DNA of 64,000 nucleotides from Escherichia phage vB_EcoS_MM-2. Each line of letters starts with the position of its first letter. Positions within the stretch are counted from its first letter, which is position 1. The notes below the pieces were generated by a model. The model saw nothing but the letters and a program-made list of their open reading frames with translations, made no database searches and was not told the origin of the DNA. A program made the translations under genes and the position numbers. Positions 9,819 through 64,000 of this stretch are shown here, piece after piece. The DNA lies in the sequence record PV577658; one strand, written 5' to 3'.

Positions 9819-9832
9819 CTTTATAAATGTAC

Positions 9833-9880
9833 TTGCTTTCAACTCAGTTTTGTTATATAATATTTATATAAATTAATGAG
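9833..9880 (+). promoter_or_regulatory. early promoter (TTGCTT-17-TATAAT)
   Basis: ttgctt..tataat then atttatataaattaatgagag downstream box. Confidence 0.55.
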
Positions 9881-9891
9881 AGGGTTGCAAA

Positions 9892-11136: not shown

Positions 11137-11187
11137 TACATAGCCCTTTGCTACCCATCTACCATATCGGAATTATAAAGTGGTTAT

Positions 11188-11215
11188 TGACATTTTCGCC
11201 GCTTAGGTATATACT
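11188..11215 (+). promoter_or_regulatory. promoter-like element in the ligase inter-ORF spacer (TTGACA ... TATACT)
   Basis: ttgacattttcgccgcttaggtatatact. Confidence 0.4.
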
Positions 11216-11279
11216 ATTATCATTCAGTTGAGGGATAGAAAGTTATGGCGAGGGTAAGCAAAGTTAGTTAAAATTGTAG

Positions 11280-11330
11280 TTGCTAAATGCTTAAATACTT
11301 GTTATAATATTTATATAAATTGATAAGGAA
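11280..11330 (+). promoter_or_regulatory. early promoter (TTGCTA-17-TATAAT) upstream of the ligase C-terminal subunit
   Basis: ttgcta..tataat then atttatataaattgataagg; same family as the 9833 promoter. Confidence 0.55.
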
Positions 11331-11335
11331 GAAAT

Positions 11336-12118: not shown

Positions 12119-12878
12119 ACTGAACTGGAACGTAGAAGGTGTAACCGAGTCTCTGAAAGCAAAAGCCACTGCTCTGGGTGTTTCTGTAATCTCTCAAGAA
12201 CAAGTAGCTGCTATCGCTGCTGAACTGGCTGCTGAAACTGGCAAAGATGTTACTGCTCGCTCTGTTGGCTCTAAACTGCGTAAAGAAGGTTTTGAAGTAC
12301 AGAAAGCTAACGAAGTACAGAAATCCCCGTGGACTCCTGAGCAGGAAGCTGAACTGGTTGATTTCCTGAACGCTCATGCTGGTCAGTATACCTATGCTGA
12401 AATCGCTGCTGCTGTAGCTGGTGGTCAGTTCGGTGCTAAACAGGTACAGGGTAAGATCCTGAGTCTGGAAATGACCGCTTCTGTTAAACCAACTGAAAAA
12501 GCTGCTGCTGTTCGTTCCTTTACTCCGGATGAAGAAACTGATTTTGTTAATCAGGTTGTTGCTGGTGCTACTATTGAAGCTATCGCTGCTCACTTCGGTC
12601 GTAATATCAAGCAGATCCGTGGTAAAGCTCTGAGCCTGCTTCGTGAAGGTCGTATCGCTGCTATGCCGGTACAGGAAACTTCCAGTGCTAAAACTCGTGA
12701 AGATCTGTTAGAAGGTCTGGATCTGGTTAACATGACTGTTGCTGAGATCGCTGAGAAAACTGGTAAGTCTGAGCGCGGTGTTAAATCTATGCTGTCTCGT
12801 CGTGGTCTGGTTGCTAAGGACTATGATGGTGCCGCTAAGCGTGCTAAACTGGATGCAAAAGCTGCGGCTGCTGAATAA
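12111..12878 (+). CDS. abundant DNA-binding protein with four tandem HTH-like repeats (possibly D5-like)
   Basis: Four ~30-aa repeats of the form (V/Y/I)..(I/Q)(A/V)A..(A/G)....G.......G(S/K).L...G; strong codon bias suggesting high expression. Confidence 0.45.
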   Translation: MSKLNWNVEGVTESLKAKATALGVSVISQEQVAAIAAELAAETGKDVTARSVGSKLRKEGFEVQKANEVQKSPWTPEQEAELVDFLNAHAGQYTYAEIAAAVAGGQFGAKQVQGKILSLEMTASVKPTEKAAAVRSFTPDEETDFVNQVVAGATIEAIAAHFGRNIKQIRGKALSLLREGRIAAMPVQETSSAKTREDLLEGLDLVNMTVAEIAEKTGKSERGVKSMLSRRGLVAKDYDGAAKRAKLDAKAAAAE

Positions 12879-12885
12879 TCTGGTA

Positions 12886-12930
12886 AATTAAACCTAAGGG
12901 GAGGGGGCTATGCTCCTTCCCCTTTTTGCA
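12886..12930 (+). terminator. possible attenuating terminator hairpin
   Basis: G/C-rich imperfect hairpin aaggggaggggg..tccttcccc followed by tttttgc. Confidence 0.35.
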
Positions 12931-14433
12931 TTTAGAAGGCACGAAAGCGTGCAAAGGAGAATGACCTTGTTTAACGTGCAAGCTGTAGTGTTGAAGATGC
13001 TTCTAGCTTCTGAACAGAAGCAAATAGCATTGGAAACATTCTCAAAACTGCATAAAGATCATTTTAATGACGCTTTCTCCTCAATTTACCAAGCCGTCCA
13101 GAATTATTATAAAAAATATAACACAATGCCGTCCATTGACGCACTGATGCTTGAGGCTAATAGGAACGCCCGCCTTTCTCAAGCTCTAGTCGTTTTAGCT
13201 AACACTCAAATTCCAGAAGTGAGCATGGAACAGGCACTTGAAGTCCTAGAGGCCGAATATACACAGGATTTATTCCTAAAGCTTCTAGAAACAGACGTGC
13301 TTCAAGATTTAACAATGCTGGATCAGGGAGAAATTCTCAACCGAGTTGCCTCCCTTCACTTAAAATTAGAAGAGAAAGTAACGAATACTGGAAAAGTATT
13401 CAACGCAGATAACATGCGTATTTTCCAGAGAGAAGAAGATACCAAACTGAACCTAATCGCTCTTGGTATTTGTAATGAGTTCGACGCTCAAATTGGTTTA
13501 GCTCGCACAGAAACGTTACTGCTTGGTGGTTGGCGTGGTACTGGTAAATCCATTATCTGTTCAAACATACAGGTTCAGCAATATTTGAATGGAGATATTG
13601 CTCCATACTTCTCAATTGAGATGAAAGAACATGAAGTATTTAGACGTAATCTAGCCATGCTAGCTGGTGTATCAGCACTAGCAATGCGTAATAATACTCT
13701 AGAAGGTGCAGCTCTGTTGAGACTAGCCAGAACTAGAGCTAGGATGTTCAACGGTGGTGAAGAGCTTTTCGATAACTTCGTTAAACAGTATACAATGGCT
13801 AAGATGAGTGATTTCTACGATATGGAGAGTAAGCTAATAGAAGGGTATGAGCTACATACTCCTATGATTATTGTTTATGACCCTGAGTTGTCTATTACAA
13901 CAGTTGACGTAGAATTAAATAAATTAGTTGCTAGATATGGTGATAAAGTTACAGTAGCTCTACTTGACTATATTAACCAAACCCGACTTCCAGACTCTAA
14001 AACCATTGATATGTATGACTGGAAAGAACAGATGGTTGTTAGCTCGTCTTTCAAATCTATCTGCCAGAAACATAACGTGGCTGGCGTAGCTCCTTACCAG
14101 ATCGATCAAGACGGTAGAACACGTATGTCAAAGGGGATTCTTGATTCCGCAGACATGGCTGCTAATCTTAATGCTGCAAAAGCTGATAATGGTCAAGGTG
14201 CTATTATGTTTGACTTCGTTAAGACTCGTTCTTCTGATAGCGTGAAGTTTATGCCTAAAATGAACTGGGAAACTCTGCGAATGGATAACACTACCAACCT
14301 AGCAATGGAAGATATATCTCAAATGGAAGCTGAGTTCGTTATCCCTATTGAGAAGGATAAGCCGGCTCAACCTAAACGTGCTAAGAAAGACAAAGCTGAA
14401 AATTCAACAGGTGAACAGGCCAGCGATATATGA
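12910..14433 (+). CDS. DnaB-like replicative helicase (likely start at Met ~12961)
   Basis: Walker A-like GGWRGTGKS; RecA-like C-terminal region; AAGGAG RBS before the internal Met. Confidence 0.65.
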   Translation: MLLPLFAFRRHESVQRRMTLFNVQAVVLKMLLASEQKQIALETFSKLHKDHFNDAFSSIYQAVQNYYKKYNTMPSIDALMLEANRNARLSQALVVLANTQIPEVSMEQALEVLEAEYTQDLFLKLLETDVLQDLTMLDQGEILNRVASLHLKLEEKVTNTGKVFNADNMRIFQREEDTKLNLIALGICNEFDAQIGLARTETLLLGGWRGTGKSIICSNIQVQQYLNGDIAPYFSIEMKEHEVFRRNLAMLAGVSALAMRNNTLEGAALLRLARTRARMFNGGEELFDNFVKQYTMAKMSDFYDMESKLIEGYELHTPMIIVYDPELSITTVDVELNKLVARYGDKVTVALLDYINQTRLPDSKTIDMYDWKEQMVVSSSFKSICQKHNVAGVAPYQIDQDGRTRMSKGILDSADMAANLNAAKADNGQGAIMFDFVKTRSSDSVKFMPKMNWETLRMDNTTNLAMEDISQMEAEFVIPIEKDKPAQPKRAKKDKAENSTGEQASDI

Positions 14434-22991: not shown

Positions 22992-24810
22992 GACACTAAA
23001 ATTTAGTAACGTTATGTCTTACGGTAAGGACATCGTAATTCATTTCGACAAGAATCCAGTTACTCAACTAATTGGTGGCAATGGGCTAGGGAAATCCACC
23101 ATCGCTACGGTTATCGAGGAATTGTTTTATAACAAGAACTCACGGGGTATTAAGAAGGATGCTCTGTTCTCTTGGTCTTCTCCGAAAAAAGAGTATGATA
23201 TGCACGCTTACTTCTCAAAAGATGAAGATGAGTATGAATTGCATAAAGTAGTTAAATCAACTGCTAAAGTAACCCTTATTAAGAATGGAGAAGATATTAG
23301 TGGACACACGGCGACCCAAACATACAAGATGATTGAAGAAATTATGGGTGGTGACTTCCAAACATTCACCAAACTTATTTATCAATCAGTGGGTTCTAAT
23401 CTAGACTTTCTAAAAGCAACAGATGCAACACGTAAGGCTTTTCTTGTCAACTTGTTCAATCAAGAACAGTACAAAGAAATGTCAGAAACTATTAAGGCTG
23501 ACCGTAAAGAAATAGCAAATACCTTAAATAATTTGCAGGGCCAAATGGCTGTAATTACGAAAATTCTTAATGGAAAGAATAACTTGGGAACTTTGCAGGA
23601 ACCTGTAGAAGTACCGGAGTTTGATGAAGAGCCGTTAGCACAAGAACTTACTGAATCGAAAATTAAGGCGGCATTAGCCAAGTCTCAAGAGGCTAATATT
23701 ACTAAATTGCGTAATTTGGACAAAGCTGTACAAGTTGCCGAACAATCTTTCGAGCCTTTCAAAAATTTACCCGCGCCCACTGACCAAAATGAAGAGATCT
23801 CGAGTGTTACGCGTGACCTAACGATTGTGACCTCACGTGCGAGCGAAGTTAAGAAACGTTATCAGAAGTTCAAGCAAGAGGCTTCAAATACTGAATGTCC
23901 TACCTGTGGTACTCATCTGGATACAACTGCTGCGCAAAAAGCAATGGATATGGCTAGAACAGAATATGATCCTCTGTTCAAAGAGAAGCAATCTCTTGAA
24001 GCTAAGCTAGAACAGTTGAAGAAGGAACAACTTGAGTACGTTGCGTATACTAGAGCAAAGGATGCTTTGGATAAGGCAGTGGTAGCTAGAGACGAGTTCA
24101 AAAATTCAATGAGTGATGCTTCTTTTGAAGAACTCAATGTGCAAATCCTACAGGTGCAAATCCGACAATTAGAACAGGAAATAGCTGATGGACGTTCTAA
24201 GGTTGCAATTGCTAAAGAACATAATGCAAATATTGAGTTAGCCAATGCAAAATATAAGGCGAAACTAGAACAGATTGAGAAAGCTGAGGCAGAAATGTCT
24301 GAGATTACATCCAAACTGGATGGAGTATCAGAAGCTGTTGCTGATCTCGATATTCTGATTGCTGCATTAAAGAATCTAGTAGGATATAAGCTAGAGCATA
24401 GTGTGAAAGTATTTGAAGAACTTATCAATAAATACCTTTCTATTATGACTGGCGGTAAGTTCGCACTTGGATTTGAACTTGATGAAACGAAATTGCAAGT
24501 AGTAATCTTCAATGATGGAAACCGTACCAGTATGGAGAATTGCTCTACTGGTCAGCAAAGTCGAATCAACCTAGCAACTCTGTTAGCTATTCGAATGCTA
24601 CTAACATCTATTAGTAAAGTTAATATTAATCTTCTATTCCTTGATGAAGTAATTAGCTTTATTGATACTAAAGGACTTGACACCCTTGTTGAATTATTAA
24701 ATGAGGAAGAAAGTCTAAATTCTATCATTGTTTCTCATGGGCATACGCATCCATTAGCCCATAAGATTACTGTCAAAAAAGATGCAGAAGGATTTTCCTA
24801 CTTAGAATAA
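22897..24810 (+). CDS. SbcC/Rad50-family ATPase (likely start at Met ~22972)
   Basis: Walker A GGNGLGKST, long coiled coil with CPTCG zinc-hook, signature STGQQSRINLA, Walker B LLFLDEV. Confidence 0.75.
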   Translation: MNFTSVKLRSYLKVTLIESWLELRNMSKITIKTLKFSNVMSYGKDIVIHFDKNPVTQLIGGNGLGKSTIATVIEELFYNKNSRGIKKDALFSWSSPKKEYDMHAYFSKDEDEYELHKVVKSTAKVTLIKNGEDISGHTATQTYKMIEEIMGGDFQTFTKLIYQSVGSNLDFLKATDATRKAFLVNLFNQEQYKEMSETIKADRKEIANTLNNLQGQMAVITKILNGKNNLGTLQEPVEVPEFDEEPLAQELTESKIKAALAKSQEANITKLRNLDKAVQVAEQSFEPFKNLPAPTDQNEEISSVTRDLTIVTSRASEVKKRYQKFKQEASNTECPTCGTHLDTTAAQKAMDMARTEYDPLFKEKQSLEAKLEQLKKEQLEYVAYTRAKDALDKAVVARDEFKNSMSDASFEELNVQILQVQIRQLEQEIADGRSKVAIAKEHNANIELANAKYKAKLEQIEKAEAEMSEITSKLDGVSEAVADLDILIAALKNLVGYKLEHSVKVFEELINKYLSIMTGGKFALGFELDETKLQVVIFNDGNRTSMENCSTGQQSRINLATLLAIRMLLTSISKVNINLLFLDEVISFIDTKGLDTLVELLNEEESLNSIIVSHGHTHPLAHKITVKKDAEGFSYLE

Positions 24811-53659: not shown

Positions 53660-53770
53660 TTTGACTTTTGCCAAATTTCATAAGATTACACATGGAGGTG
53701 TGTCCAGTGGGTCGGGGGAGAATACTTAGTCTGCTAACCGCCACCCCCCGTTACTATTATCATGGTAATT

Positions 53771-53807
53771 GTTTCACCCTGCAATTAAAATGGTTGCAGG
53801 GTGAAAC
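53771..53807. terminator. bidirectional terminator hairpin (perfect 14-bp stem)
   Basis: gtttcaccctgcaa-ttaaaatgg-ttgcagggtgaaac between the plus-strand peptide array and the minus-strand dmp-like gene. Confidence 0.7.
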
Positions 53808-53824
53808 AATTTCAACTTTAATTA

Positions 53825-54601
53825 TTACGCAACTTTTAATTTCTCGATATATTGTTGCGGGCTGCAACTATATTCTGCGCGTTCTTCCTCGGTCATACCT
53901 TCCCAACATAATTTCAAACGATCAGCTAGGAATTGATAATCATTATCATCATCGAGGGATTCATCAATAAAGGTTTCACCTATCAATGCCACGCCGATTG
54001 ATAGAATATCGTTAACGGCTTGCGCGTCCAGCGTTTTAAATCCGTATGATGCCGCCGCTGATAGTACACCCTTATGATCATCAATCATTGTAAAATCAGC
54101 GTTCGGATATAACTGTTTAAATAATTCAAAATAATAAGATTTATAAACTGCGTCTTTGCTGTGGTATATCTCGCTAACTTTATCAGCCTCAAAATATTTA
54201 TGCAGTGTATCGCGAGAAAACACGCGGATATTACTATCACCACGACCGCGCAAGCCTTGTTTGCGCAAATAATAATAGTCCGACTTGCTCATTAGTCGAG
54301 CGGTACAAATAATGTTTAAAGTATTTGCGTCATTCATGCACTGGCGCATATATGTAACAAGGGGCAATAAAGTATCTTGCATTATTAAATCATGTTTGCA
54401 GGCTTCATTTTTATACTTATTTAAATCTAAATTGCCCTCGCTATCAAAGCAAGGCGCTACACGATGGAAAGAATTAATGATAGTGCCGTCCAGATCCCAA
54501 ATCATGACGCGGGAAATATGCGGGAAATTACGGGTAATATTCATTTTAACTTGATTCATTTTGTTACGTTCTCCATTAAAGGGATTTAGTTTATCCAGCA
54601 T
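53825..54601 (-). CDS. dmp: HAD-family 5'-deoxyribonucleotidase-like protein (T5 dmp-like)
   Basis: HAD motif I MIWDLDGTI; first gene of a minus-strand operon with A1/A2-like genes; likely internal start giving ~244 aa. Confidence 0.55.
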   Translation of the reverse strand: MLDKLNPFNGERNKMNQVKMNITRNFPHISRVMIWDLDGTIINSFHRVAPCFDSEGNLDLNKYKNEACKHDLIMQDTLLPLVTYMRQCMNDANTLNIICTARLMSKSDYYYLRKQGLRGRGDSNIRVFSRDTLHKYFEADKVSEIYHSKDAVYKSYYFELFKQLYPNADFTMIDDHKGVLSAAASYGFKTLDAQAVNDILSIGVALIGETFIDESLDDDNDYQFLADRLKLCWEGMTEEERAEYSCSPQQYIEKLKVA

Positions 54602-54639
54602 TACCCGCTATTTATAAGCGGGTAATAATAAATCAACTA

Positions 54640-55032
54640 TTAAAGACCATAAGCCAACGCATCAGCGATAAAACTAACATCCTCACCGGATACGCTAGAA
54701 CGAATCCCCGCGCAGGTGTATACCTTTGCGCTCGCTAGCTGATCATCAAGGCAAGCGGGGCAAGGCGCGACAACTGCAAAGGCTAGACCAGATTTTACCG
54801 CGTCAATAATGATTGTTTCTTGTTTCATCGTGTCAACATAAACGCCTTTTGCTTTAATATGGCTGGTTAGTTTGCCTTGCGTATAGGCAAAGGTAGTAAC
54901 CTGTAAAGCGTCATTGAAATCTAATAATTCATCAATAACGTGCCCCGCCTCGACGTGGTAACGTTCACCATTAGAATAAACCAGAACAATGGAAGACTGA
55001 GCGCGATCGAATGGAATATTTTGCTTTTTCAT
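54640..55032 (-). CDS. small Cys/His-containing protein, possibly deaminase-like zinc-binding
   Basis: HVEAGH ... PCPAC motifs, but spacing (~70 aa) is longer than in canonical cytidine deaminases. Confidence 0.3.
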   Translation of the reverse strand: MKKQNIPFDRAQSSIVLVYSNGERYHVEAGHVIDELLDFNDALQVTTFAYTQGKLTSHIKAKGVYVDTMKQETIIIDAVKSGLAFAVVAPCPACLDDQLASAKVYTCAGIRSSVSGEDVSFIADALAYGL

Positions 55033-55071
55033 ACTTATAAAACTCCAATTAGTTTAATATAGGGATTTAAT

Positions 55072-55362
55072 TTATTTGATAATAATCTGCATCTGGTACG
55101 GCGTTAATTCACCGTTTACGGGTAAATTATTATCGCTTAGCCACTCATAAAAAGCGCCATCATCATCAAAAGGAACAACATCATTATCACGATAATCGAT
55201 GGAAATAATGCCATCCGTATTAGTTTTGGCGGCTAGGATAGGCCCAAAGCTGTAAACTTTATCGGATTCCATTTCATCCGGTGAGATGAATGCTTTTTCG
55301 TCCAATGTTTTGGGTAATGTAACTTTCATTTTTTGACTCCTGTAATAGCGGCTATATTTCAA
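55072..55362 (-). CDS. hypothetical pre-early protein (likely start at Met ~55329)
   Basis: Track ORF with conserved upstream translation-initiation region. Confidence 0.4.
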   Translation of the reverse strand: MKYSRYYRSQKMKVTLPKTLDEKAFISPDEMESDKVYSFGPILAAKTNTDGIISIDYRDNDVVPFDDDGAFYEWLSDNNLPVNGELTPYQMQIIIK

Positions 55363-55382
55363 GCCGCTAGGGGATAATTTAA

Positions 55383-57047
55383 TTACGCGAAAAATTTACC
55401 GTTTTTAAAGTCAATCAAAGTGCGCTGACCGTTTGCATAGGTAATTAAATGCGTTTGCGTCCAGCTTGACGCGCCAACGTTGTAACCCATATCCAGACTA
55501 CCAGCTACGCCAGCGGTATAAACGCCACCGTAAATGCTAGCGGTATGGGTGTGTCCCGTGTTTAGCTTGCCCAATTTCTTAAACTGTTTAGGATTGCCAC
55601 GACTGCCGTTAATGCCGTTGTGACCGTGTACGCCGCACTCAATGCCTGCAATCTTGAAAGATTGATCAGTGGTTAGGAAAATGGCGTTAAACTCACAACC
55701 TGCAACCTTGCGCAGCGCATAATCTAGCACGTTAAAAGTATCATCATGATCACTGATCGCCGCGTAAATTGCAGCATTCAGGCGGTGATATAGTTCGGCG
55801 TTGGCTGGATCGTCTTTGATGTTAGCATTACGATCATCTAACCAGCGGGATAGCGCCAAATCGTGATTAGATTCAACAATGATTGTTTGAGAGAAATCAC
55901 GTTCCATTGATTCCAGCACGCGCCCCGTATCGATAAGATCATCCAGAACTTTATCACGTCCAGCGGCATACTGTTTTGCTAGGAATACACCGGATGCACG
56001 GTTATGATGATTGCGCGATGTAAAATCATGCACGTCATGGATAAACTGATATTTTGGTTTAAGAATATCAAGCAAGCTATTTTCGCCAGCCCATGACGCA
56101 ACGGCACAATCATCATCTAATTTTTCCGCATGAATATCGCCATACTGCAAGCCTAAAACATGCCCCGATGTTTCATAGCATCCGGCAGGAGTAGCGCAAA
56201 CATTCAGATCATAAAACACCCCGCTTTCGTCCATTGTTTCAAGCTGGCGAACAAAAAATTCCCCGTCCTCGTCGAACTCAACAATCAGCGCGCCGAAGTT
56301 ATGCAGAGCTTCCGCTTTTTGTCCTGCTTTCTGCTGAATATAGTTTTTAAGCGTTGCCGTTCCGGTTGAATACATACGGCGCACTACTTCACCTTTTAAA
56401 GCTGGCACGCTTTCAGCGGTGATTTTAGCGTGACCAATTGCCAGCCCCTCAATATTGAGCGCCGTTGCAGTTTCTGCAAATCCTGAAAGCGGGTAATCTG
56501 CGGTTGGCAAAACATTAATTTCAGCCATGAAAGCAAAACGGCGGTTATTTAAAAACACGTTTTTGCTGCAAATATATTTATCAAATGCGGGATCGTATTT
56601 GATACCGTCTGCACCTTCTTCATTCTGGAAGCCATTTTTATTATAAATATACTTAGAAACAAGCAAATCAGCACCGATATATTCAGCGAATTTTTCCAGA
56701 CTTGCTAAAAAGTTTTTATGCGGGAAAGTATTATTTTGAATCGACGTAATAATAAAGCGTTTACCCTGTTTTACTTCCCATTGCTCAACCGTACTAGAAA
56801 CAATTCCCGCCGCTTCTGGGCGCTCATCGTTTTTAATGGCTTTTGCTACTTTTGCCGCTTTCGGTTTAGCTGGTTTATTTGCTTCCAGCCAGTCGCAGAT
56901 AGCGGTTGAATGCTTCGTTGTATCGTAGACCGCTTTTGATATATCGTCGCAGACTTCCAGTTTAGTAGCGCGCAGACGTTTACCATAGAAATTAAAGTCA
57001 GCGGCCATTTTCAGGATAACGGTTTGTTTTTCTGCGGAAATAATCAT
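55383..57047 (-). CDS. A1: A1-like pre-early protein with calcineurin-like metallophosphoesterase motifs
   Basis: 554 aa; GDIHAE and GHTHTAS metallophosphatase-type motifs; size and context match T5 A1 as I recall it. Confidence 0.6.
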   Translation of the reverse strand: MIISAEKQTVILKMAADFNFYGKRLRATKLEVCDDISKAVYDTTKHSTAICDWLEANKPAKPKAAKVAKAIKNDERPEAAGIVSSTVEQWEVKQGKRFIITSIQNNTFPHKNFLASLEKFAEYIGADLLVSKYIYNKNGFQNEEGADGIKYDPAFDKYICSKNVFLNNRRFAFMAEINVLPTADYPLSGFAETATALNIEGLAIGHAKITAESVPALKGEVVRRMYSTGTATLKNYIQQKAGQKAEALHNFGALIVEFDEDGEFFVRQLETMDESGVFYDLNVCATPAGCYETSGHVLGLQYGDIHAEKLDDDCAVASWAGENSLLDILKPKYQFIHDVHDFTSRNHHNRASGVFLAKQYAAGRDKVLDDLIDTGRVLESMERDFSQTIIVESNHDLALSRWLDDRNANIKDDPANAELYHRLNAAIYAAISDHDDTFNVLDYALRKVAGCEFNAIFLTTDQSFKIAGIECGVHGHNGINGSRGNPKQFKKLGKLNTGHTHTASIYGGVYTAGVAGSLDMGYNVGASSWTQTHLITYANGQRTLIDFKNGKFFA

Positions 57048-57137
57048 AGTAATAAAACTCCATTAAAGGGATTAGATTAATAACGGCAATATTGCCAAAT
57101 ATAACGCCTCAAATAATAGGCGTTATAATTTGCAACA

Positions 57138-57335
57138 TTAATTTAAAGGCACTAGGCTAGAACTAACACCACAAGCAACGGCAGCGATAAAACAAAGCAA
57201 GCCCAAACGTTTTGCTAATTTAGATTTACGTTTAAAATAATATGAATCTAAATCATTTTGAAAATAAGCGAACAATAACGAGGGCGCCATAATAAACAAG
57301 CCTAGAATTAATGATTCAGTAGGATAAAAGATCAT
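57138..57335 (-). CDS. small membrane protein (two predicted TM helices)
   Basis: MIFYPTESLILGLFIMAPSLLFAYF ... LGLLCFIAAVACGVSS; AGGAG RBS. Confidence 0.4.
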   Translation of the reverse strand: MIFYPTESLILGLFIMAPSLLFAYFQNDLDSYYFKRKSKLAKRLGLLCFIAAVACGVSSSLVPLN

Positions 57336-57429
57336 TTTAAAAACTCCTGATTTAAGGGAAGAAAATAACTATCGCTAAACAGTTATATTATTGCCCCCTC
57401 ACTAAAAAAAGGGGGGCAAGGTATAACTA

Positions 57430-57837
57430 TTATTCGCCTGCGGCTTGTTTTACTTCCTCGGCAACGCCTAACAATTGCGCTACTGCGTCCAGCGTTTCAA
57501 GTTTTGCACTTTCAAGGCTTGCCAGATCATCGGCATCTTTGATAATGCCGGAATCGATAGCGTGTTTTGCAATAACGCGTACATAATGAGCTTTGCGGAT
57601 TGAACTACCGCCGCCAACTTTGCGGGGCTTACCGCTTTTTTGATATGCTTTTGCGCTGGTCAATTTTGACCGAACGGATACGGGAGAAGCCGCGCCTACT
57701 GCTTTTGCAATCTCTTTCAGGCCGTCGCTATTTGCGAAATCTAAACCGTTTTCATTAATTAACTGTTGATACATGGAAACAGCTTTCTGAGTGTTTTCTT
57801 CATTCCATGCGAATTTTGCGGTTTTAGCGTTAGTCAT
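57430..57837 (-). CDS. A2: A2-like pre-early DNA-binding protein
   Basis: 135 aa (~15 kDa), basic central region; position upstream of the A1-like gene. Confidence 0.5.
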   Translation of the reverse strand: MTNAKTAKFAWNEENTQKAVSMYQQLINENGLDFANSDGLKEIAKAVGAASPVSVRSKLTSAKAYQKSGKPRKVGGGSSIRKAHYVRVIAKHAIDSGIIKDADDLASLESAKLETLDAVAQLLGVAEEVKQAAGE

Positions 57838-57933
57838 GATGTAACTCCTATTAGTTTAATTTAAGGGATTAGATTAACTTAATGTTAATCGTTATATCCC
57901 CCTGAAATAAGGGGATATAAAGTTAACACTAAT

Positions 57934-58185
57934 TTACAATACAGCTTCCCATTTTTCGTTGCGTTGAACAACCTTTACAACATCGCCGGATTTAACGCGA
58001 ACGCTAAAAACGGGCTTGCCGTTGTTACTACGTTCATTTTCAGCGTATACCGCGTCGATTGTATCGAACGGCATAAGCGCCGCACCTTTAATACGTTCGG
58101 CCTTTCCGGTTAATTCATCCGTTTTAGTAACGAAAGGAATGAAGACGAATTGACCAACTTTCGGCGCGGTAATAACGTTTTGCAT
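57934..58185 (-). CDS. hypothetical pre-early protein
   Basis: 83 aa; first gene of the minus-strand block. Confidence 0.4.
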   Translation of the reverse strand: MQNVITAPKVGQFVFIPFVTKTDELTGKAERIKGAALMPFDTIDAVYAENERSNNGKPVFSVRVKSGDVVKVVQRNEKWEAVL

Positions 58186-58415
58186 AATATAAACTCCTAG
58201 TTATTTGGGGATTGTTCCGCATTACCTGCTAGAAAGTAACAGCAGGTAATAAGTAACAATCCGCTCGCCAATATAATCAATTTTAAAGAACTCCACGTAG
58301 GCCGCTATATCCCGTTAGGGGGCGGGATGCATTATGGTAAGCACCGACCGTCAAATTTTATCAAGTTATCGCTCTTATCGAACTGGGTACATCTTAAAAC
58401 CTATCGGCTAGGTTG

Positions 58416-58619
58416 TCAAACAATTTTTTGCAATTTTTTATGATTTTCTTTTAGGTCAATCATAATATTTCGCCAGATCATTTCCAGACCTTGCTGGCGA
58501 CCTTTCTTGTACTGCGTGAATCTATATCTTACTGATCTTTGAGCTACTGTCAACAAATTTTTTGTTTTGCTATCTAGTGCCTTAATAGGCTTGCCAGTGA
58601 TCAAAAGCGTTTGTTTCAT
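58416..58619 (-). CDS. hypothetical small basic protein
   Basis: 67 aa, Lys/Arg-rich; weak RBS. Confidence 0.3.
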   Translation of the reverse strand: MKQTLLITGKPIKALDSKTKNLLTVAQRSVRYRFTQYKKGRQQGLEMIWRNIMIDLKENHKKLQKIV

Positions 58620-59066
58620 ATCGTCGATTCCTTATAATGAATAAGTTTACCGCCGATAGGCTTTAAGATGTACCCAATTTTTAAAGAGCGTGGCGGTAAA
58701 CTTCCCGCCGTGTAGTTCGTCATTGCCGCCCTACGAGATAAATAATAGGGGATTCCCGAAAATGGCGCAACCTTATTTTTGTAAAGAAATGTAAAGGTAA
58801 AACTCACCGGACACCGTGCGGCGACGGCCTAAAATTAAAAGAAACGGGCGCGCGAATACCACAAAATAAAGCAAATAGGCAAGTAATTTTTTCATTTATA
58901 TTTGCTTTGCCCTACTTGACAAAATCTAAAAAGCTCGTGGTAACGATAAACGGCTTATCCCCTTATGATGGGATGGCTAAAAACTTTATTGCGTTCTGGA
59001 GCGTTTTAGGCGCATTCTAGCCTTGTTGATAACTTATCCCCAAAAGCAAAAATGAAATTTTCCTAG

Positions 59067-59099
59067 TTATCCACTTGACTTTTATTTTCCAGTGGATAA
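59067..59099. promoter_or_regulatory. inverted pair of DnaA-box-like 9-mers around a TTGACT hexamer
   Basis: agTTATCCACTtgacttttattttccAGTGGATAAct; 11-bp perfect inverted repeat, each arm one mismatch from TTATCCACA. Confidence 0.5.
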
Positions 59100-59273
59100 C
59101 TACTTATTTTATGAAATAAATTAATTGACTTTTATTTGTTAGTATGCATCGGAAAGATAGCAGACTAATAATTGCTAGAATGATAATCATGCTGGTGGAT
59201 TGTAACGACCTGAATTATTAGCAGACTATTAATCACGGAAAAATCTCATTAGCCAACTAACTATTTCATGATA

Positions 59274-59300
59274 TATAATATACATATAAATTAATGAGAA
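59274..59300 (+). promoter_or_regulatory. promoter-like element of the early family
   Basis: tataat followed by atacatataaattaatgagaaa box; no convincing -35; no gene for ~430 bp downstream. Confidence 0.35.
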
Positions 59301-59351
59301 ATAATAACTATAAGAAATCATCTAGCTAAGTGAGAACCACTATCATTTAAG

Positions 59352-59372
59352 TTATACACAAAGTTATCCACA
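59352..59372 (+). promoter_or_regulatory. two adjacent DnaA-box-like sites
   Basis: gTTATACACAaagTTATCCACAgc: one perfect consensus 9-mer and one with a single mismatch. Confidence 0.5.
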
Positions 59373-59443
59373 GCACTTTTTGACTTGACACGATAGGCGG
59401 CGATATAAGGACTTTTACACAGACTTATCTACAGGTTATTCCA

Positions 59444-59459
59444 CTGTATAAATATACAG
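59444..59459. promoter_or_regulatory. LexA (SOS) box-like palindrome
   Basis: CTGTATAAATATACAG fits CTGT-N8-ACAG with AT-rich spacer. Confidence 0.45.
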
Positions 59460-59726
59460 GGTAAAAAGGTAGTGTTAACAACTGCAATCAATTTTAAGCG
59501 GCTTAAATCGCATTCTAACGAGCTAAACGCTGCGGGGTAATATTAAAGTAAAGCCTTAATGCGTCGCCCTGGTGGCTTCGCCGTGGTTTGCTCTTTATTG
59601 CACCGCTGCGCGGTTAGCATAAAAATAGGCGCTAGGCAAGGAAAATAAAAAGGTAAAATAATATTTGCCTATGCTAGAAATTTACCTTTATCATTCACTC
59701 ACCGATTAACGAGGGAGGCCGAACAA

Positions 59727-60506
59727 ATGAGGCTTTATAAACCTGATAATGCCACCGTTTTAAAAGGTGCATTGCGCAACCTGCTGGATGGTAGCAAGTC
59801 AACCAGCATTAAACATTTTATTAACAAGATTGAAACTATTCATCAAAACTTTTTTGATGATTATGACGCTTATGATATGGATAGTTTTCTACCCTTATAT
59901 AGACAAGGGGCAACGCTAGTTTTATATAATCGGGATTGCCATATCTTTACAGGCAGGGGAGCGGGGCCGGATACCGATTTTATTGTTGCGCAGGGTAATA
60001 ATATTGTTGCGTATCATAGCAATTCAGGCCGTCAATCATTTAATATAAATAGTTTTGAGCTTATTGGACTTGATCTGATAAATGGACTTTCTAGCATTGA
60101 GGGATTTTTAGATGTTATCTGGAAGTATTTACCCGCTGGATGGCATAAGCCGGATAACGACGGATCTCAATATACCGGTATAATGGCTTTTGATGGCGAC
60201 GGTAATTTTTTGTTACCACGGGAGCTATACCCATATATTTATGATGGGGATATAGAAAGCGCTGGTTTTTCTTTCTGGAAAGATGAAGATCAGATTATTG
60301 ACAGCGTAGAAAACCATGCTGTAAATTCTAACACTCAAAGCGTTAACACTCAAACTACTGAAAACAAAGGAAAAAACACTATGACCAAGATTGCTAACAT
60401 CGTTGCCGCTAATAAATCCGCCGTTGTAAATGCTGCAAAACTGGAAGCGGGTAAAATTGCACTGACTCAAATCACGAAAGTAGCGGCTAAAAAGCACCGT
60501 TCATGA
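59727..60506 (+). CDS. hypothetical protein, 259 aa
   Basis: Track ORF with RBS GAGGGAGG; no recognisable motif. Confidence 0.45.
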   Translation: MRLYKPDNATVLKGALRNLLDGSKSTSIKHFINKIETIHQNFFDDYDAYDMDSFLPLYRQGATLVLYNRDCHIFTGRGAGPDTDFIVAQGNNIVAYHSNSGRQSFNINSFELIGLDLINGLSSIEGFLDVIWKYLPAGWHKPDNDGSQYTGIMAFDGDGNFLLPRELYPYIYDGDIESAGFSFWKDEDQIIDSVENHAVNSNTQSVNTQTTENKGKNTMTKIANIVAANKSAVVNAAKLEAGKIALTQITKVAAKKHRS

Positions 60507-60736
60507 TTAAAGGCTATATTGATACGCCGATTGGTCGAGTAGTGATTGCTAACCTGCTAAGTGTAGCGGTTGACCAGTACGCACCGACTAACCAGAAAGC
60601 GAAAGCGGTAGCAGGGGCGGCTATGGAAGCGGCAATGCTGGAAATGGTGCAAAGTTTTAACATCGCTGAAATGATTGATGAAATGGTGAAAGGTATTGAT
60701 ATTTCTACTTTTACCACTAGCACCGAAATCGAGTAA
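60503..60736 (+). CDS. hypothetical protein
   Basis: Track ORF, ATGA overlap with upstream gene. Confidence 0.4.
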   Translation: MIKGYIDTPIGRVVIANLLSVAVDQYAPTNQKAKAVAGAAMEAAMLEMVQSFNIAEMIDEMVKGIDISTFTTSTEIE

Positions 60737-60801
60737 TAATATTTAGTGGGGATTATTTCCCCACTTTACTACTCCCTTGTTAATTAATAGGAGGCTAACT
60801 A

Positions 60802-61296
60802 ATGGCTGAGGAAAAATACGGCTTCTCGCTAGGAGAAGTGAGCACGGCTAAACATGATATGATCATTTTAGTCGATTGTCATACTGGCTATTGCGGAGAA
60901 GGGAACACCGAAGAATACTTTGTTCCTGCTGGTACGGATCTGGACGCTTTCGCTCATGAAATGGCTATTGATAATGCTTCTCGTTTTGGTAGCGATGGCT
61001 ATGAAGACGAAGAAACTGGCGAATGGTATGAAAATGAAAACGTATATGCAAGCCTTTATCATTATCAGCTAAGTAAATCCGGCACATATGTAAACGGCGG
61101 CGATCCTATTAATTCCGTCATGAAATTAATTATTAAATATGGTGGCGTCGAGATAATTGATAACAAAGCGGTAATATACGCAAACCGATTAAAACAGCTT
61201 GTTTATATTCCTGATAGTACCCGATGGGATGAATACGCTGTTTTGCATGACGAATTGAAACGATGTTTCAATATTGAATCCCTGCAAGTAGTCTAA
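60802..61296 (+). CDS. hypothetical acidic protein
   Basis: Track ORF with RBS AGGAGG. Confidence 0.45.
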   Translation: MAEEKYGFSLGEVSTAKHDMIILVDCHTGYCGEGNTEEYFVPAGTDLDAFAHEMAIDNASRFGSDGYEDEETGEWYENENVYASLYHYQLSKSGTYVNGGDPINSVMKLIIKYGGVEIIDNKAVIYANRLKQLVYIPDSTRWDEYAVLHDELKRCFNIESLQVV

Positions 61297-61323
61297 TGTA
61301 AAGTTTTGTAAAGGTCGCCTTTT

Positions 61324-61632
61324 ATGGTGGCCTTTTTTGTTATAATGCTTTTACACCAAAACGGTGGATTGAAAATTTTCCCAAAAATTTGGAGGCTTAA
61401 AATGGTTGCTTATTCTTCTGCTAGTCATCTGTTTACCGCGCAAGGCTGGGTATCTAATCGTGCTGTCATCTATGAAATGGTGCAGGAGTTCGGCATTGCT
61501 AAAACTTATAATACCATTCAGGAACTATATAACGCCGATAAAATCGATCAGCAAACGGCTGGCTTTTTACTGGATACCCTGAAAGCTGAACATTGCACTA
61601 AAAAACAAGCCGCTAAAATTGTTTTAATGTAA
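61324..61632 (+). CDS. hypothetical protein (likely start at Met ~61402)
   Basis: GGAGG RBS precedes the internal Met; followed by hairpin cggggcg..cgccccg. Confidence 0.4.
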   Translation: MVAFFVIMLLHQNGGLKIFPKIWRLKMVAYSSASHLFTAQGWVSNRAVIYEMVQEFGIAKTYNTIQELYNADKIDQQTAGFLLDTLKAEHCTKKQAAKIVLM

Positions 61633-61681
61633 TTAATAACGGGGCGTTACTTTCGCCCCGATAACTAGGAGGCTATCACAA

Positions 61682-61832
61682 ATGGTTATTTTTCGATCTA
61701 TTTTAGCGGGTATCTTGGGCGCTATTTTATCGTTATTTGCGATAGCTTTCGGCGTTCACGCTGTTATTATTGGCGCTGGCATTGCTGCGTTTTCTTATCT
61801 GCTGGGCTGCATGACTAGTAAAGGAGAATAAA
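61682..61832 (+). CDS. small membrane peptide (~50 aa)
   Basis: Hand-translated: MVIFRSILAGILGAILSLFAIAFGVHAVIIGAGIAAFSYLLGCMTSKGE; AGGAGG RBS. Confidence 0.35.
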
Positions 61833-61833
61833 A

Positions 61834-62046
61834 ATGATCCGCAACGTTTCCCTTGCACGTTCGAAAGGCTTTAAGCTGGTGGATGTTAACACGTTCGAGT
61901 GGGAAGATTGTAAAATCGAATATGTAGCACGTAACAAAAATGCCTTTCGTGTTACCGAGAAAAAATTTGATAAGCGCGGCAACGTGATAGCTGAAACAGT
62001 TAAACATTTTGCCACCTTTTACGCTGCTTTCCGTGGGGTATTATGA
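61834..62046 (+). CDS. hypothetical protein
   Basis: Track ORF. Confidence 0.4.
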   Translation: MIRNVSLARSKGFKLVDVNTFEWEDCKIEYVARNKNAFRVTEKKFDKRGNVIAETVKHFATFYAAFRGVL

Positions 62047-62146
62047 TTCAGCAAATTAAAACGGCTTTTCGTTTTTGGGGCGTCCTGCCTTCAATTGGTT
62101 TTATTCTGATAATTATTAGTCAGCTAATGATCATCGGCGGAACTAT

Positions 62147-62506
62147 TTGGGAGCTATGCAAATGATAATTTATGAAGGCAATCGCTTTGTTGCTAATTGC
62201 CGTCCGGCATTATTAGCAAACTATTTAAACCAGCTTTCCCCAGCTTATAAGGGCGTTATTAATATTTATGAGGGAAAGGCGCATTATAAAATTAATGCGG
62301 TCGTTGCCCGTGAACTAGCATTTCAATTTTTGACCTTTGCATCTTGTGACGTTCAGGTTATGGGTGAGGCATTAATCGCGGAAAATGAAGAGGATTTTAT
62401 TAATATTTTCCGTAAGGTATGCACTGAGCGCTTGATAATGAAAGGCGCGTATATTCAATCAACTGCGGAAAGTATTGAAACAGCATTTCGAAAGGTGGCG
62501 CAATGA
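62147..62506 (+). CDS. hypothetical protein
   Basis: Track ORF. Confidence 0.4.
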   Translation: MGAMQMIIYEGNRFVANCRPALLANYLNQLSPAYKGVINIYEGKAHYKINAVVARELAFQFLTFASCDVQVMGEALIAENEEDFINIFRKVCTERLIMKGAYIQSTAESIETAFRKVAQ

Positions 62507-62606
62507 GATTATATATTTTCGTTGGTAATGTTAAGGCAGCTAATGATTCCGCTGGTGGCGACAACGTTCGCCACCATTGGCAAAAATATATTTACTAGGA
62601 GTTATT

Positions 62607-62711
62607 ATGTCTGGTTTAATGTTTACCTTATTAGTAGTTTATAGCATAATTACGGCAGGAATAGTAACTTATGTTACTAGTAAAATTTGGCCGGGAATAT
62701 ATGGTAATTTT
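62607..62711 (+). CDS. small membrane peptide (~34 aa)
   Basis: Hand-translated: MSGLMFTLLVVYSIITAGIVTYVTSKIWPGIYGNF; RBS AGGAG. Confidence 0.3.
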
Positions 62712-62729
62712 TAATAACGGAGCGTTATT

Positions 62730-62933
62730 ATGAGCAATAAAATTATTGTAACCAAAATCAGTACAATGGTTGATGTTTTTTACGTGCCAGATACGCCGGA
62801 GAATCGGCAAGCGGTCGAGCGGGGCGAATATGATAAAGTGATTTATGATCACGATGGTTATTATCAGTATTTGGTGGATTCCTACGGGGAGGAGGAGAAG
62901 ATCACGCATCGACTACCGGAGGAGGGTTTATGA
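62730..62933 (+). CDS. hypothetical acidic protein
   Basis: Track ORF with RBS ACGGAG. Confidence 0.4.
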   Translation: MSNKIIVTKISTMVDVFYVPDTPENRQAVERGEYDKVIYDHDGYYQYLVDSYGEEEKITHRLPEEGL

Positions 62934-63083
62934 AACGATGGTTTAATCACTGGTACAAGCGGTTTTTAGTACGCCGTCGCAAGTCTAGGCATCAAGATGA
63001 GTGGCGGGAGTGGGCAAAGCGTAACGGTTGCCCGCTACTATAATAATCACGGGGCGCAACTATCGGGAAGTGCCCCCAATTCT

Positions 63084-63106
63084 CAAATGAGAATCATTCT
63101 CATTTG
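63084..63106. repeat. perfect 11-bp-arm palindrome caaatgagaat-c-attctcatttg
   Basis: Core aatgagaatcattctcatt recurs at ~63474 (imperfect) and ~63581 (perfect). Confidence 0.7.
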
Positions 63107-63299
63107 ACCGCGCCCGCGATGGTTAGCCTGCTAATGATTAGGGTGTTACGTGTCGCCTTGTGTGATCGTTAGCGAGCTAACTAATTTTCAAGCCTCCTCC
63201 AATTTTGCCCTTGTTTTAGTATCTCCACCAAAATTAAACGCGTTAGAATGCGATCTAGGACGTTTTAACGCTATATTAGAATTATTCACTGCGTAGGAA

Positions 63300-63319
63300 T
63301 ACTGTATATTTATACAGTA
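63300..63319. promoter_or_regulatory. LexA (SOS) box-like palindrome, 19/20 match to consensus
   Basis: TACTGTATATTTATACAGTA versus TACTGTATATATATACAGTA. Confidence 0.5.
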
Positions 63320-63399
63320 GGATAAGCTGTGATAAGTCTGTTAATAACACCCCAAAATGGCTAGGATTCTGTCAAGTCAAATCGTGCTGTTAATAAGTC

Positions 63400-63408
63400 T
63401 GTGGATAA
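63400..63408 (-). promoter_or_regulatory. DnaA-box-like site (perfect 9-mer on minus strand)
   Basis: tgtggataa is the reverse complement of TTATCCACA; flanked by repeated gataagtctgt. Confidence 0.45.
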
Positions 63409-63426
63409 CTTAAATAATAGTGTTTC

Positions 63427-63600
63427 TCACTTCCGTTCTTAAATACGAATCACTATCATTTGCGTTCCACTTTCTAAATGAGAATCATTCTGCTTTTTAA
63501 AGGAGAATCGTTTCACTTCCTGAATAATTCTCACTTCCATTCTTAAATGCGAATTATTATCATTCTCATTCCGCTTTTTAAATGAGAATCATTCTCATTA
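63427..63600. repeat. two ~70-100 bp imperfect direct repeats carrying the aatgagaatcattctcatt palindrome
   Basis: ctcacttccgttcttaaatacgaatcactatcatt... and ctcacttccattcttaaatgcgaattattatcatt..., each ending in the palindrome core. Confidence 0.65.
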
Positions 63601-63639
63601 TCATTCGCATTCAGGCGAGCAGGGCAATTGCCCTGCGCT

Positions 63640-63760
63640 TTTGTGCAAATCCGACATTGCTCCACGGGTGTTACGTGCGGGCGTGTATGTGCGAATCCCT
63701 GTGGGGTATGTGCAAATCCGACACGGTTTTTCTAGGATTAAGATGTGCGAATCCGACAAG
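63640..63760. repeat. four iteron-like copies of ATGTGC(A/G)AATCC(GACA)
   Basis: tgtgcaaatccgaca, tgtgcgaatccctgt, tgtgcaaatccgaca, tgtgcgaatccgaca at ~20-35 bp spacing. Confidence 0.65.
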
Positions 63761-63770
63761 ATTTTTGTGA

Positions 63771-63960
63771 CTTCGATTGGAGGGTGTGTGATTGTGTGAG
63801 TTTGGGGAGAAGTTGAGAGAGCGAGAAAAATTTGAGGGAACTGCGGGAGGGGCGCATGTTTGGTGCGGAGCACCTGATTTGCGGGGATTTTGGGGAAGAG
63901 TTGAGAAGATTTGGGTTAATTTGAGATTAGTGCAGAAAAAGTAAAATTTTATTAGCTAAA
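63771..63960 (+). other. polypurine, C-depleted tract with repeated (t)ttgag(a/g) motifs
   Basis: Almost no C on the plus strand; gttgagagag, tttgaggg, gttgagaag, tttgagattag; no credible ORF. Confidence 0.5.
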
Positions 63961-64000
63961 TGGAGCAAAATAGCTTGACAAGTGAAAATTCTTGTGGCTC

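Follow-up and report, generated by a model that had tools for sequence, protein, structure and literature searches.

The exact inverted 14-mer at positions 59507–59520 and 63241–63254 of the window (the whole 64,000-nucleotide stretch analysed, from Escherichia phage vB_EcoS_MM-2) is the best-preserved piece of a long-known inverted repeat of about 200 bp around a dispensable cassette of small genes, and is largely ordinary. The window belongs to a T5-like phage (Tequintavirus) that shares 99.8% identity with vB_EcoS_MM-1, and it includes one complete terminal repeat (window positions 53702–64000, corresponding to the long terminal repeat of vB_EcoS_MM-1 at 1–10407). This T5-like (Demerecviridae) genome carries the inverted repeat in its long terminal repeat, with the hdi-side genes on one side and the beginning of the early region on the other. 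It is itself already known: Davison cites Heusterspreute (1987) and Wang (2005) for the T5 elements IRC-spacer-IRD / IRD'-spacer-IRC' and IRB/IRB', and because the repeat has been described since the injection-stop region was first sequenced, the finding itself adds little. In the literature, the arms appear as inverted repeats of 131 bp that contain DnaA boxes in pairs, are conserved across 25 T5-like phages, and are considered candidates for iss; a role of the repeats in cis in the injection stop is a literature proposal only, and functional studies were called lacking as of 2023. In the reading that we favour, with a probability of roughly 0.55, the 14-mers are homologous pieces of two old inverted copies of a module, in which a small island is kept as a DNA-level site and inversion of the cassette is a by-product.

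The inverted repeat and its inner 14-mer

The repeat is colinear and imperfect, and the 14-mer lies at its inner tip. The arms, the blocks detected by a repeat search of the window, and the two copies of the 14-mer are as follows.

59328–59527, + strand: left arm, equivalent to T5 Repeat Region 2 (IRC-spacer-IRD at 59328–59459, with an inner extension to 59527)
63234–63432, − strand: right arm, equivalent to T5 IRD'-spacer-IRC' (63302–63432), with an inner extension down to 63234
59328–59429 / 63331–63432: inverted block, 75% complementary
59431–59459 / 63302–63330: inverted block, 90%
59493–59527 / 63234–63268: inverted block of 35 nt containing the 14-mer, 77%
59507–59520, + strand: left 14-mer, ATCGCATTCTAACG, covering two pentamers of the AACGC type phased at 10 bp (ATCGC, followed by AACG)
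63241–63254, − strand: right 14-mer, exact reverse complement of ATCGCATTCTAACG, exact in T5 (AY587007 9271–9284)

The left arm maps to positions 6022–6213 of T5 (AY587007), and the T5 counterparts of the inverted blocks are IRC (6022–6060), IRD (6112–6152), and IRB' (6184–6209), plus IRD' and IRC'. The two inverted units of approximately 131 bp (59328–59459 and 63302–63432) share 82–89% identity with T5 6022–6152 and 9332–9462, and the right arm forms the left edge of the Repeat Region 3 / iss region. The arrangement is the same as that of the T5 first-step-transfer repeats in locus, element order, paired DnaA boxes, and position around genes 011–017. However, the published C/D unit covers 131 bp, whereas the 14-mer lies about 48 bp inward of the IRC-spacer-IRD / IRD'-spacer-IRC' core. 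The left 14-mer has its T5 homologue in AACGCTTTCTAACG, a sequence overlapping the element annotated as 'inverted repeat B''. In the annotation, that element is paired with IRB from Repeat Region 1 and not with the right arm, and the right-arm copy, located between palindromes C and D in T5, is unannotated there.

The preliminary description of this DNA had reported an exact inverted 14-mer with both copies in non-coding DNA flanking a gene cluster, and this was confirmed, the cluster occupying 59727–63043 on the + strand. It was also right that the pair brackets a module, in that the 14-mers belong to conserved inverted-repeat arms flanking the variable right-hand pre-early cassette. In contrast, its statement that chance would hardly produce a perfect 14-mer in 64 kb was mistaken: counting all exact inverted 14-mers of the window gave 34 k-mer pairs (approximately 21 distinct repeats), whereas base composition predicts about 15, so finding one such pair in a stretch of this length is nothing unusual, and a shuffle test shows the rarity of this particular word only. 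The pair exceeds chance on account of its colinearity with two longer inverted blocks and of its homologous copies in relatives. Within the 64-kb window, there was no further copy of the 14-mer with one mismatch or fewer, and a degenerate pattern search did not find the motif elsewhere. An exact 14-mer search of IMG/VR returned 112 matches, mostly on unrelated contigs, with both inverted copies present in only one T5-like contig; because this set is biased, it was left out of the conservation estimates.

Conservation of the phased island and its neighbouring sites

The arms were aligned across 18 and then 35 phages. In the 18-phage alignment, the sequences clustered by arm and not by phage; the arms are two old, independently evolving copies of a non-coding module of about 200 bp. 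From the outside inwards, each arm consists of two DnaA-box pairs, a conserved TTGACA, a palindrome resembling a LexA operator, about 45 arm-specific bases, and phased 10-bp units. These units form an island of three to four repeats of the YCTAAAACGC type, in which the AACGC pentamers lie on one helix face and a spacing of exactly 10 bp dominates; the 14-mer covers the second and third pentamers. Identity between the arms is highest at the 14-mer in the 18 phages (0.77, against 0.35–0.47 in the flanks on both sides). Exact identity between the arms is found in only 3 of the 35 phages, the 14-mer differing in the other 32, typically by two mismatches; it is 14/14 in vB_EcoS_MM-2 and 12/14 in T5. 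The motif was far from being absent in relatives, a possibility that the preliminary description had raised, since every T5-like phage examined had homologous copies at the same place in its two arms, and the island is conserved in both arms across subfamilies. The motif takes the form AWCGCWTTCTAACG in Tequintavirus; in the left arms of Epseptimavirus it ends in TTCTAAGC. It is also kept in both arms of Klebsiella phages, in which the A1 protein is 72% identical. The motif is disrupted in the left arm of SuperGirl and in the right arm of phiR201. DU_PP_V carries extra motif copies beside a half palindrome, and in this phage the motif and the arm are placed differently with respect to each other. 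In the window, a third copy was located outside the two arms.

58991–59022, − strand: additional, diverged copy of the phased motif, located in Repeat Region 1 and homologous to T5 'inverted repeat B'

This copy adjoins DnaA-like boxes at 59024–59042.

Gene conversion between the arms was rejected as the source of the resemblance, there being one shared rare state against 0.53 expected (p = 0.43, permutation test across the 35 phages). STP-SP2 has the same odd G in both arms. Because the flanks are also well conserved within each arm among close relatives, the case for constraint rests on the comparison between arms. As it is conserved without gene conversion, the phased motif is a candidate protein contact. 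Comparison of the 14-mer with the operator consensus sequences of IHF, Fis, PhoP, CpxR, RcsAB, PurR, and lambda CII gave no convincing fit.

The DnaA boxes and palindromes that accompany the island are listed below.

59352–59372, + strand: DnaA-box pair TTATACACA / TTATCCACA, 3 bp apart, in IRC of the left arm (boxes start at 59352 and 59364)
59413–59433, + strand: DnaA-box pair TTTTACACA / TTATCTACA, 3 bp apart, in the spacer/IRD of the left arm (boxes start at 59413 and 59425)
63388–63408, − strand: DnaA-box pair TTATCCACA / TTATTAACA, 3 bp apart, in IRC' of the right arm (boxes start at 63388 and 63400)
63339–63347: further DnaA box in the right arm, the partner of which is spoiled by a 1-bp deletion
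59444–59459, no strand assigned: LexA-box-like palindrome CTGTATAAATATACAG, inside IRD of the left arm, nearly invariant in 36 arms
63300–63319, no strand assigned: LexA-box-like palindrome TACTGTATATTTATACAGTA of the right arm, T5 'palindrome D'

The DnaA-box clusters may be comparable to an oriC-like arrangement or to datA/DARS-type titration sites. With non-origin DnaA-box clusters they share closely spaced consensus or near-consensus boxes in non-coding DNA and possible accessory sites nearby. Each arm has two pairs of DnaA or near-DnaA boxes separated by 3 bp, as in T5; the 3-bp pairing rule was given by Davison (2020, bioRxiv 10.1101/866236), and the T5 origins map elsewhere than these boxes (Davison). 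The palindromes have the form CTGT-N8-ACAG and match the LexA consensus TACTGTATATATATACAGTA at 19 of 20 positions at 63300–63319 and at 16 of 20 at 59442–59461, with most of their variation among the relatives examined concentrated in the four central positions. No part of the arms is better conserved than this element, which, judged by its sequence, is a nearly perfect LexA-type operator. Palindromes located further to the right agree with the Fur box at 13–15 of 19 positions. The likeness to the LexA operators and Fur boxes of enterobacteria lies in the palindromes neighbouring the 14-mer, not in the 14-mer itself; in the literature searched, we found no mention of T5 in connection with LexA, SOS boxes, or Fur boxes. 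A promoter-like site on the − strand (59478–59451) overlaps the left palindrome, and its −35 region is not conserved in T5.

The bracketed cassette and its orientation

The DNA between the arms contains the following features.

59727–63043, + strand: cassette of small pre-early genes between the two arms
59665–59694, + strand: promoter-like site TTGCCT-18-TATCAT upstream of gene 011, corresponding to the promoter annotated in T5 records

The cassette encodes a split 011/DUF7566 gene, a 164-aa ORF, a homologue of the Ung-dependent nickase, and homologues of 015 and 017. It is highly variable (Davison), and the distance between the conserved arms ranged from 1.85 to 4.1 kb in 18 phages. Pfam and PHROGs scans of seven cassette ORFs and of A2 detected no recombinase. 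A 2026 preprint lists the promoter just before gene 011 as experimentally characterised.

The cassette is inverted in Klebsiella relatives (Sugarland, IME260, and Boggle) and Pectobacterium relatives (My1 and DU_PP_V), with the arms at the boundaries of the inverted DNA. Orientation was fixed within each clade, with no polymorphism among 30 Markadamsvirinae loci, indicating that inversion is a rare evolutionary event and not a switch. In the Klebsiella phages, the hdi-side arm carries an inner flank of the T5 right-arm type (40–43 bits, against 12 bits), and this swap of the hdi-proximal inner flank is consistent with a crossover within the arms, while the distal arm of these phages and the arms of DU_PP_V gave an ambiguous picture. 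The proposal that the 14-mers are a relic of recombination or inversion thus held on the evolutionary scale, given the opposite cassette in these five phages, but not for an ongoing process, as there was no sign of continuing gene conversion, no recombinase, and no orientation polymorphism in the 30 loci.

Proposed function and alternative readings

We infer that the island functions as a protein-binding or DNA-bending site on the first-step-transfer DNA. The island would persist because each arm requires it at the DNA level, most probably as an array of phased sites that bind protein or bend DNA beside the DnaA boxes and the palindrome. Candidate binders of the array are host factors or the A2/A1 proteins of the phage, and array, palindrome, and DnaA boxes together may form a nucleoprotein complex on the first-step-transfer DNA that would correspond to the injection-stop/anchoring complex of Davison. 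Inversion of the cassette would be a by-product of approximately 200 bp of inverted homology and not a programmed switch. The paired binding site suggested in the preliminary description is plausible, the motif being an island of between-arm identity in arms that otherwise evolve independently. However, a T5 deletion from hegG to 017 is described as viable with small plaques, the left arm is probably dispensable, and the Providencia T5-like phages have one arm only (Davison); because the left arm is probably dispensable and the Providencia phages are single-armed, a strictly paired function is unlikely.

Several readings of the 14-mer itself compete with this one. An origin by chance, or membership in a small protein-coding gene, is very improbable. 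Although exact inverted 14-mers abound in the window, this one is colinear with the 200-bp repeat and kept in relatives. In most phages, the right-arm motif lies in a stop-free frame of some 53 codons, and the public vB_EcoS_MM-1 annotation places hypothetical CDSs over the region; however, the variable sites are spread over the three codon positions of the overlapping ORF as 25/23/24, with no excess at the third position, there is no Shine-Dalgarno sequence, and starts are missing in many left arms, the ORF start codons being absent in T5 and Epseptimavirus left arms. The small ORFs over the right copy (63150–63296 on the + strand and 63188–63289 on the − strand) were rejected, having no codon-position bias, ribosome binding site, or conserved starts, and the island is, by its pattern of variation, non-coding. 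A transcriptional role is rather unlikely: in this reading, the 3' half of the motif would supply a weak −35 element, CTAACG, followed 17 bp downstream by a −10-like hexamer, making inward promoters in both arms, or else the motif would act as an RNA-level element. The −10-like hexamers are TAATAT on the left and GATACT on the right. The same geometry can be read by eye from the alignment in both arms, and the Epseptimavirus arms likewise have a −10-like element in these columns (TATAAT in the left arm). Nevertheless, a promoter/terminator scan placed no site above its thresholds at the 14-mers, with the proposed promoters falling below the consensus-scan threshold, and the characterised promoter of the cassette lies downstream, directly before gene 011 (2026 preprint and T5 records). 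Furthermore, an inward promoter in the right arm would yield antisense RNA only, and an Rfam search returned nothing meaningful, which also speaks against an RNA element.

The remaining alternatives concern the arms as a whole. The arms are clearly an old duplication, as their clustering by arm attests, and the rarity of exact identity (3 of 35 phages) and the apparent dispensability of the left arm would both suit a functionless 14-mer that is simply the slowest-decaying remnant of that duplication. This neutral reading is unlikely, because the 45 bases from palindrome to motif are near-random between the arms, yet the island retains an identity of 0.77 without gene conversion, is kept in the Klebsiella phages despite their diverged A1, and recurs as a third copy in Repeat Region 1 and as more copies in DU_PP_V. 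A cassette of variable length and content between conserved arms, inverted in two clades, could also mean that the arms serve mainly as homology anchors, allowing co-infecting T5-like phages to exchange or invert the cassette by general recombination. We consider this quite unlikely, since it explains neither why discrete islands (DnaA boxes, palindrome, and phased motif), not the whole arm, are common to both arms, nor why the anchors are inverted. Finally, a cassette bracketed by inverted repeats and found in both orientations in nature resembles the invertible segments Mu G and P1 C and that of Salmonella Hin, in which case the 14-mers would be the crossover sites of a site-specific invertase. 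Unlike in those Gin/Cin/Hin-type systems, there is no serine invertase gene, nor any recombinase in or beside the cassette, and the arms are long and diverged (75–90% alike, with a 14-mer that differs between the arms in most phages) in place of short, identical or near-identical crossover sites; with orientation fixed per clade, including all 30 Markadamsvirinae loci, a programmed inversion is extremely doubtful.

The favoured reading, a DNA-level site kept in two old module copies, can be extended to a more specific and speculative scheme, in which the two arms, with the phased array, would form a composite landing pad for abundant host DNA-binding proteins: the box pairs would be occupied by DnaA, palindrome D by LexA, the palindromes nearby by Fur, and the phased repeats by some further factor or A2/A1. 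This assembly would constitute the T5 injection stop, and A1–A2 would release it at the phased array. Although we hold this scheme to be a long shot, if true it would recast the pausing of T5 DNA entry, a question open since the classical two-step model, as a set of testable protein–DNA contacts. Of possible use for work on the two-step DNA entry of T5 are the inward-extended repeat with a phased motif common to both arms and a third site, the LexA-type operator and the Fur-box-like palindromes, and the cassette inverted in two subfamilies. The last of these implies that the orientation of the cassette is immaterial to the phage and that the arms recombine over evolutionary time.

The 14-mer pair as part of a T5-type inverted repeat

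The sequence ATCGCATTCTAACG was read directly at 59507-59520 (+) and its exact reverse complement at 63241-63254. A search of the whole window detected no copy with one mismatch or fewer beyond these two sites, and a search for other copies found no motif outside the two arms described below. The preliminary description had considered a perfect 14-mer unlikely to arise by chance in 64 kb; this argument fails, because a count of all exact inverted 14-mers in the window gave 34 k-mer pairs (approximately 21 separate repeats), against approximately 15 expected from base composition alone. That the pair is not a coincidence follows from its colinearity with longer inverted blocks, identified with a repeat finder:

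59328-59429 (+) / 63331-63432 (-), inverted block, 102 nt, 75% complementary
59431-59459 (+) / 63302-63330 (-), inverted block, 29 nt, 90% complementary
59493-59527 (+) / 63234-63268 (-), inverted block containing the 14-mer, 35 nt, 77% complementary

When the two arms were aligned directly (left, 59328-59527; right, 63234-63432), they formed a single imperfect inverted repeat of approximately 200 bp, with the identity concentrated in islands.

The same two arms are annotated in T5 (AY587007) as inverted repeats C (6022-6060), D (6112-6152), D' (9332-9372), and C' (9424-9462). A 2020 preprint by Davison (bioRxiv 10.1101/866236) described two 131-bp inverted repeats, IRC-spacer-IRD and IRD'-spacer-IRC', conserved across 25 T5-like phages, each with two DnaA-box pairs whose boxes are 3 bp apart, and proposed that both belong to the injection stop signal through the binding of membrane-associated DnaA. 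Experimental studies of these sites were reported to be lacking in a 2023 paper on BF23. The 14-mer is located approximately 48 bp inside the 131-bp unit. Its left homologue in T5, AACGCTTTCTAACG (6200-6213), has two mismatches, and the first ten bases fall within the annotated inverted repeat B' (6184-6209; partner B at 5285-5310). On the right, T5 has the 14-mer without mismatch (9271-9284), in an unannotated stretch flanked by palindromes C and D. The partner given to the left block in the T5 annotation is therefore IRB, in Repeat Region 1, rather than the right arm. The window also has a diverged third copy of the 10-bp-phased motif, at 58991-59022 in Repeat Region 1; it is homologous to T5 inverted repeat B and is adjoined by DnaA-like boxes at 59024-59042. 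It is close to certain that the 14-mers are part of the known T5-type inverted repeat; the repeat is real, and its essentials have already been described.

Genomic setting and orientation of the enclosed cassette

The final 5 kb of the window matched 456 T5-like phage records and was 99.8% identical to Escherichia phage vB_EcoS_MM-1 (PV577657), whose whole annotated long terminal repeat (1-10407) corresponds to 53702-64000. The window therefore stops at a genome end, and the inverted repeat lies in the inner half of the terminal repeat. The surrounding genes are arranged as follows:

left of the repeat (-), dmp, A1, A2, and hdi
59727-63043 (+), cassette of variable small pre-early genes

The suggestion that the pair brackets this module was borne out, since the arms of a conserved inverted repeat flank the cassette, which encodes a split T5 gene 011 homologue (DUF7566), an Ung-dependent nickase homologue, and several small proteins of unknown function; none of its genes encodes a recombinase. 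The gene 011 homologue consists of two ORFs that overlap (59727-60506, 259 aa; 60503-60736, 77 aa) and is split likewise in the annotations of MM-1 and pork27; NC_005859 has a single 336-aa ORF, and AY587007 annotates two. Compared with MM-1 (10027-10097), approximately 100 bp is missing at 63689-63722 inside the GTGCRAATCCGACA repeat array (T5 direct repeat D), so near-identical phages differ in how many copies of this repeat they carry. Its unit GTGCAAATCCGACA (63643, 63710) has an exact extra copy at 24154-24167, in the distant, unique part of the genome. The public annotation of MM-1 (PV577657, 9449-10950 and 5858-5947) places many short "hypothetical protein" CDSs over non-coding repeat regions, including both 14-mer neighbourhoods.

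Cassette orientation in relatives was determined with a probe from the conserved C-terminal region of gene 011, and A1, A2, dmp, and hdi were located at each locus:

30 Markadamsvirinae loci: T5 arrangement (dmp-, A1-, A2-, hdi-, then 011+ to 017+)
Klebsiella phages Sugarland, IME260, and Boggle, and Pectobacterium phages My1 and DU_PP_V: cassette gene order reversed, on the strand of A1 and A2 (our locus labels: L131, 5579-8662; L162, 7186-11134; L163; L132, DU_PP_V, 8994-13713; L166/L167)
Providencia phages PR1 and PSTCR5: T5 orientation, single arm

The one-armed Providencia phages are consistent with "Type 4" of the Davison preprint, in whose text the word "inversion" is absent. In the inverted genomes, the cassette lies between the arms, and the palindrome-rich region has kept its place after the distal arm. 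The hdi-adjacent arm of the Klebsiella phages has an inner flank of the T5 right-arm type (40-43 bits vs 12), the outcome expected of a crossover inside the arms; the inner-flank type of the Klebsiella distal arm and of the DU_PP_V arms was ambiguous. The cassette segment has thus undergone at least one inversion during the history of the family. The idea of a relic of recombination or inversion holds only over evolutionary time, and we saw no evidence that inversion acts as a switch. DU_PP_V also carries two further direct motif copies (TAGAATGCGTT...; L132, 13925-13980 and 14130-14185) on the hdi side, beyond the arm, each fused to a half palindrome, TGTATAAATATACAG, with a TTGACA farther downstream.

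Conservation of the arms and readings of the 14-mer island

In an alignment of the left and right arms of 18 phages (Tequintavirus and Epseptimavirus), left arms clustered with left and right with right, indicating that the arm duplication is older than these two groups. Within a phage, arm-to-arm identity was high over the outer block AAGTGAGAA..CACT, the DnaA-box pairs and a TTGACA, the stretch CAGACTTAT..ACAG.TTAT, and the palindrome CTGTATAWWTATACAG. Past the palindrome, between-arm identity was 0.35-0.47 over approximately 45 columns, rose to 0.77 at the 14-mer, and then fell again. The island, with the core AWCGCWTTCTA common to both arms, comprises AACGC-type pentamers at exact 10-bp spacing, three in right arms (e.g., AAAACGCTCTCAAACGCATTCTAACGCG), with spacings of 10 and 9 in Tequintavirus left arms; the 14-mer covers pentamers 2 and 3. 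Among 35 distinct phages, the 14-mers of the two arms differed by no mismatches in 3, one in 7, two in 14, and at least three in 11, so the motif is degenerate, and the perfect match in the window is a condition found in a minority of phages.

Concerted evolution of the arms was rejected, as one rare state common to both arms of one phage was observed, vs 0.53 expected (permutation, p=0.43; 35 phages). The arms thus evolve without homogenising one another, so purifying selection acting on each arm separately is the best explanation for the common islands. The 14-mer island is likely kept by selection as a DNA-level site. A gene over the right copy, where a stop-free frame crosses the motif in most phages, was also rejected: variable sites were spread evenly over the codon positions (25/23/24), the ORFs had no ribosome binding site, and the corresponding start codon was absent in T5 and in Epseptimavirus left arms. 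These ORF tests gave no coding signature, in agreement with the non-coding setting first assigned to this copy, and no RNA family was found. A promoter is a minor alternative: CTAACG, a 17-bp spacer, and TAATAT or GATACT are visible by eye in both arms, giving a weak promoter-like geometry, whereas a consensus scan detected no promoter at the 14-mers. The scan did detect a promoter-like site before gene 011 (59665-59694), which matches the promoter annotated in both T5 records and listed in a 2026 preprint as experimentally characterised.

Operator-like palindromes and a possible role in DNA entry

T5 palindrome D, TACTGTATATTTATACAGTA (63300-63319), is an almost perfect match in sequence to the LexA operator (19 of 20 consensus positions), and the left-arm palindrome (59442-59461) matches at 16 of 20. 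In all Demerecviridae clades examined, the arms retain CTGTAT....ATACAG with few exceptions, and most of the changes affect the four central bases. Neither LexA nor SOS is mentioned in the Davison preprint, and our literature search found no link between T5 and LexA. A resemblance to the Fur box GATAATGATAATCATTATC, with 13-15 of 19 positions matching, is seen in the palindromes AATGAGAATCATTCTCATT (direct repeat C and palindromes E-I of T5). Palindromes of this kind also come after the distal arm in the Klebsiella and Pectobacterium phages. Those of the window are at:

63086-63104, Fur-box-like palindrome
63477-63495, Fur-box-like palindrome
63546-63570, Fur-box-like palindrome
63581-63599, Fur-box-like palindrome

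Within the island, three or four motif units would lie on one helix face, adjoining the palindromic operator-like site and DnaA boxes. This arrangement suggests a protein-binding or bending array, which may be part of a nucleoprotein complex on the first-entering DNA. A T5 mutant without hegG to 017 is described in the 2026 preprint as viable with small plaques. In T5, hegG and 011 flank the left arm, which this deletion therefore probably removes. Because one arm seems dispensable, a strictly paired role of the two arms is unlikely. For the signal that stops T5 DNA entry, these sites provide specific candidates.
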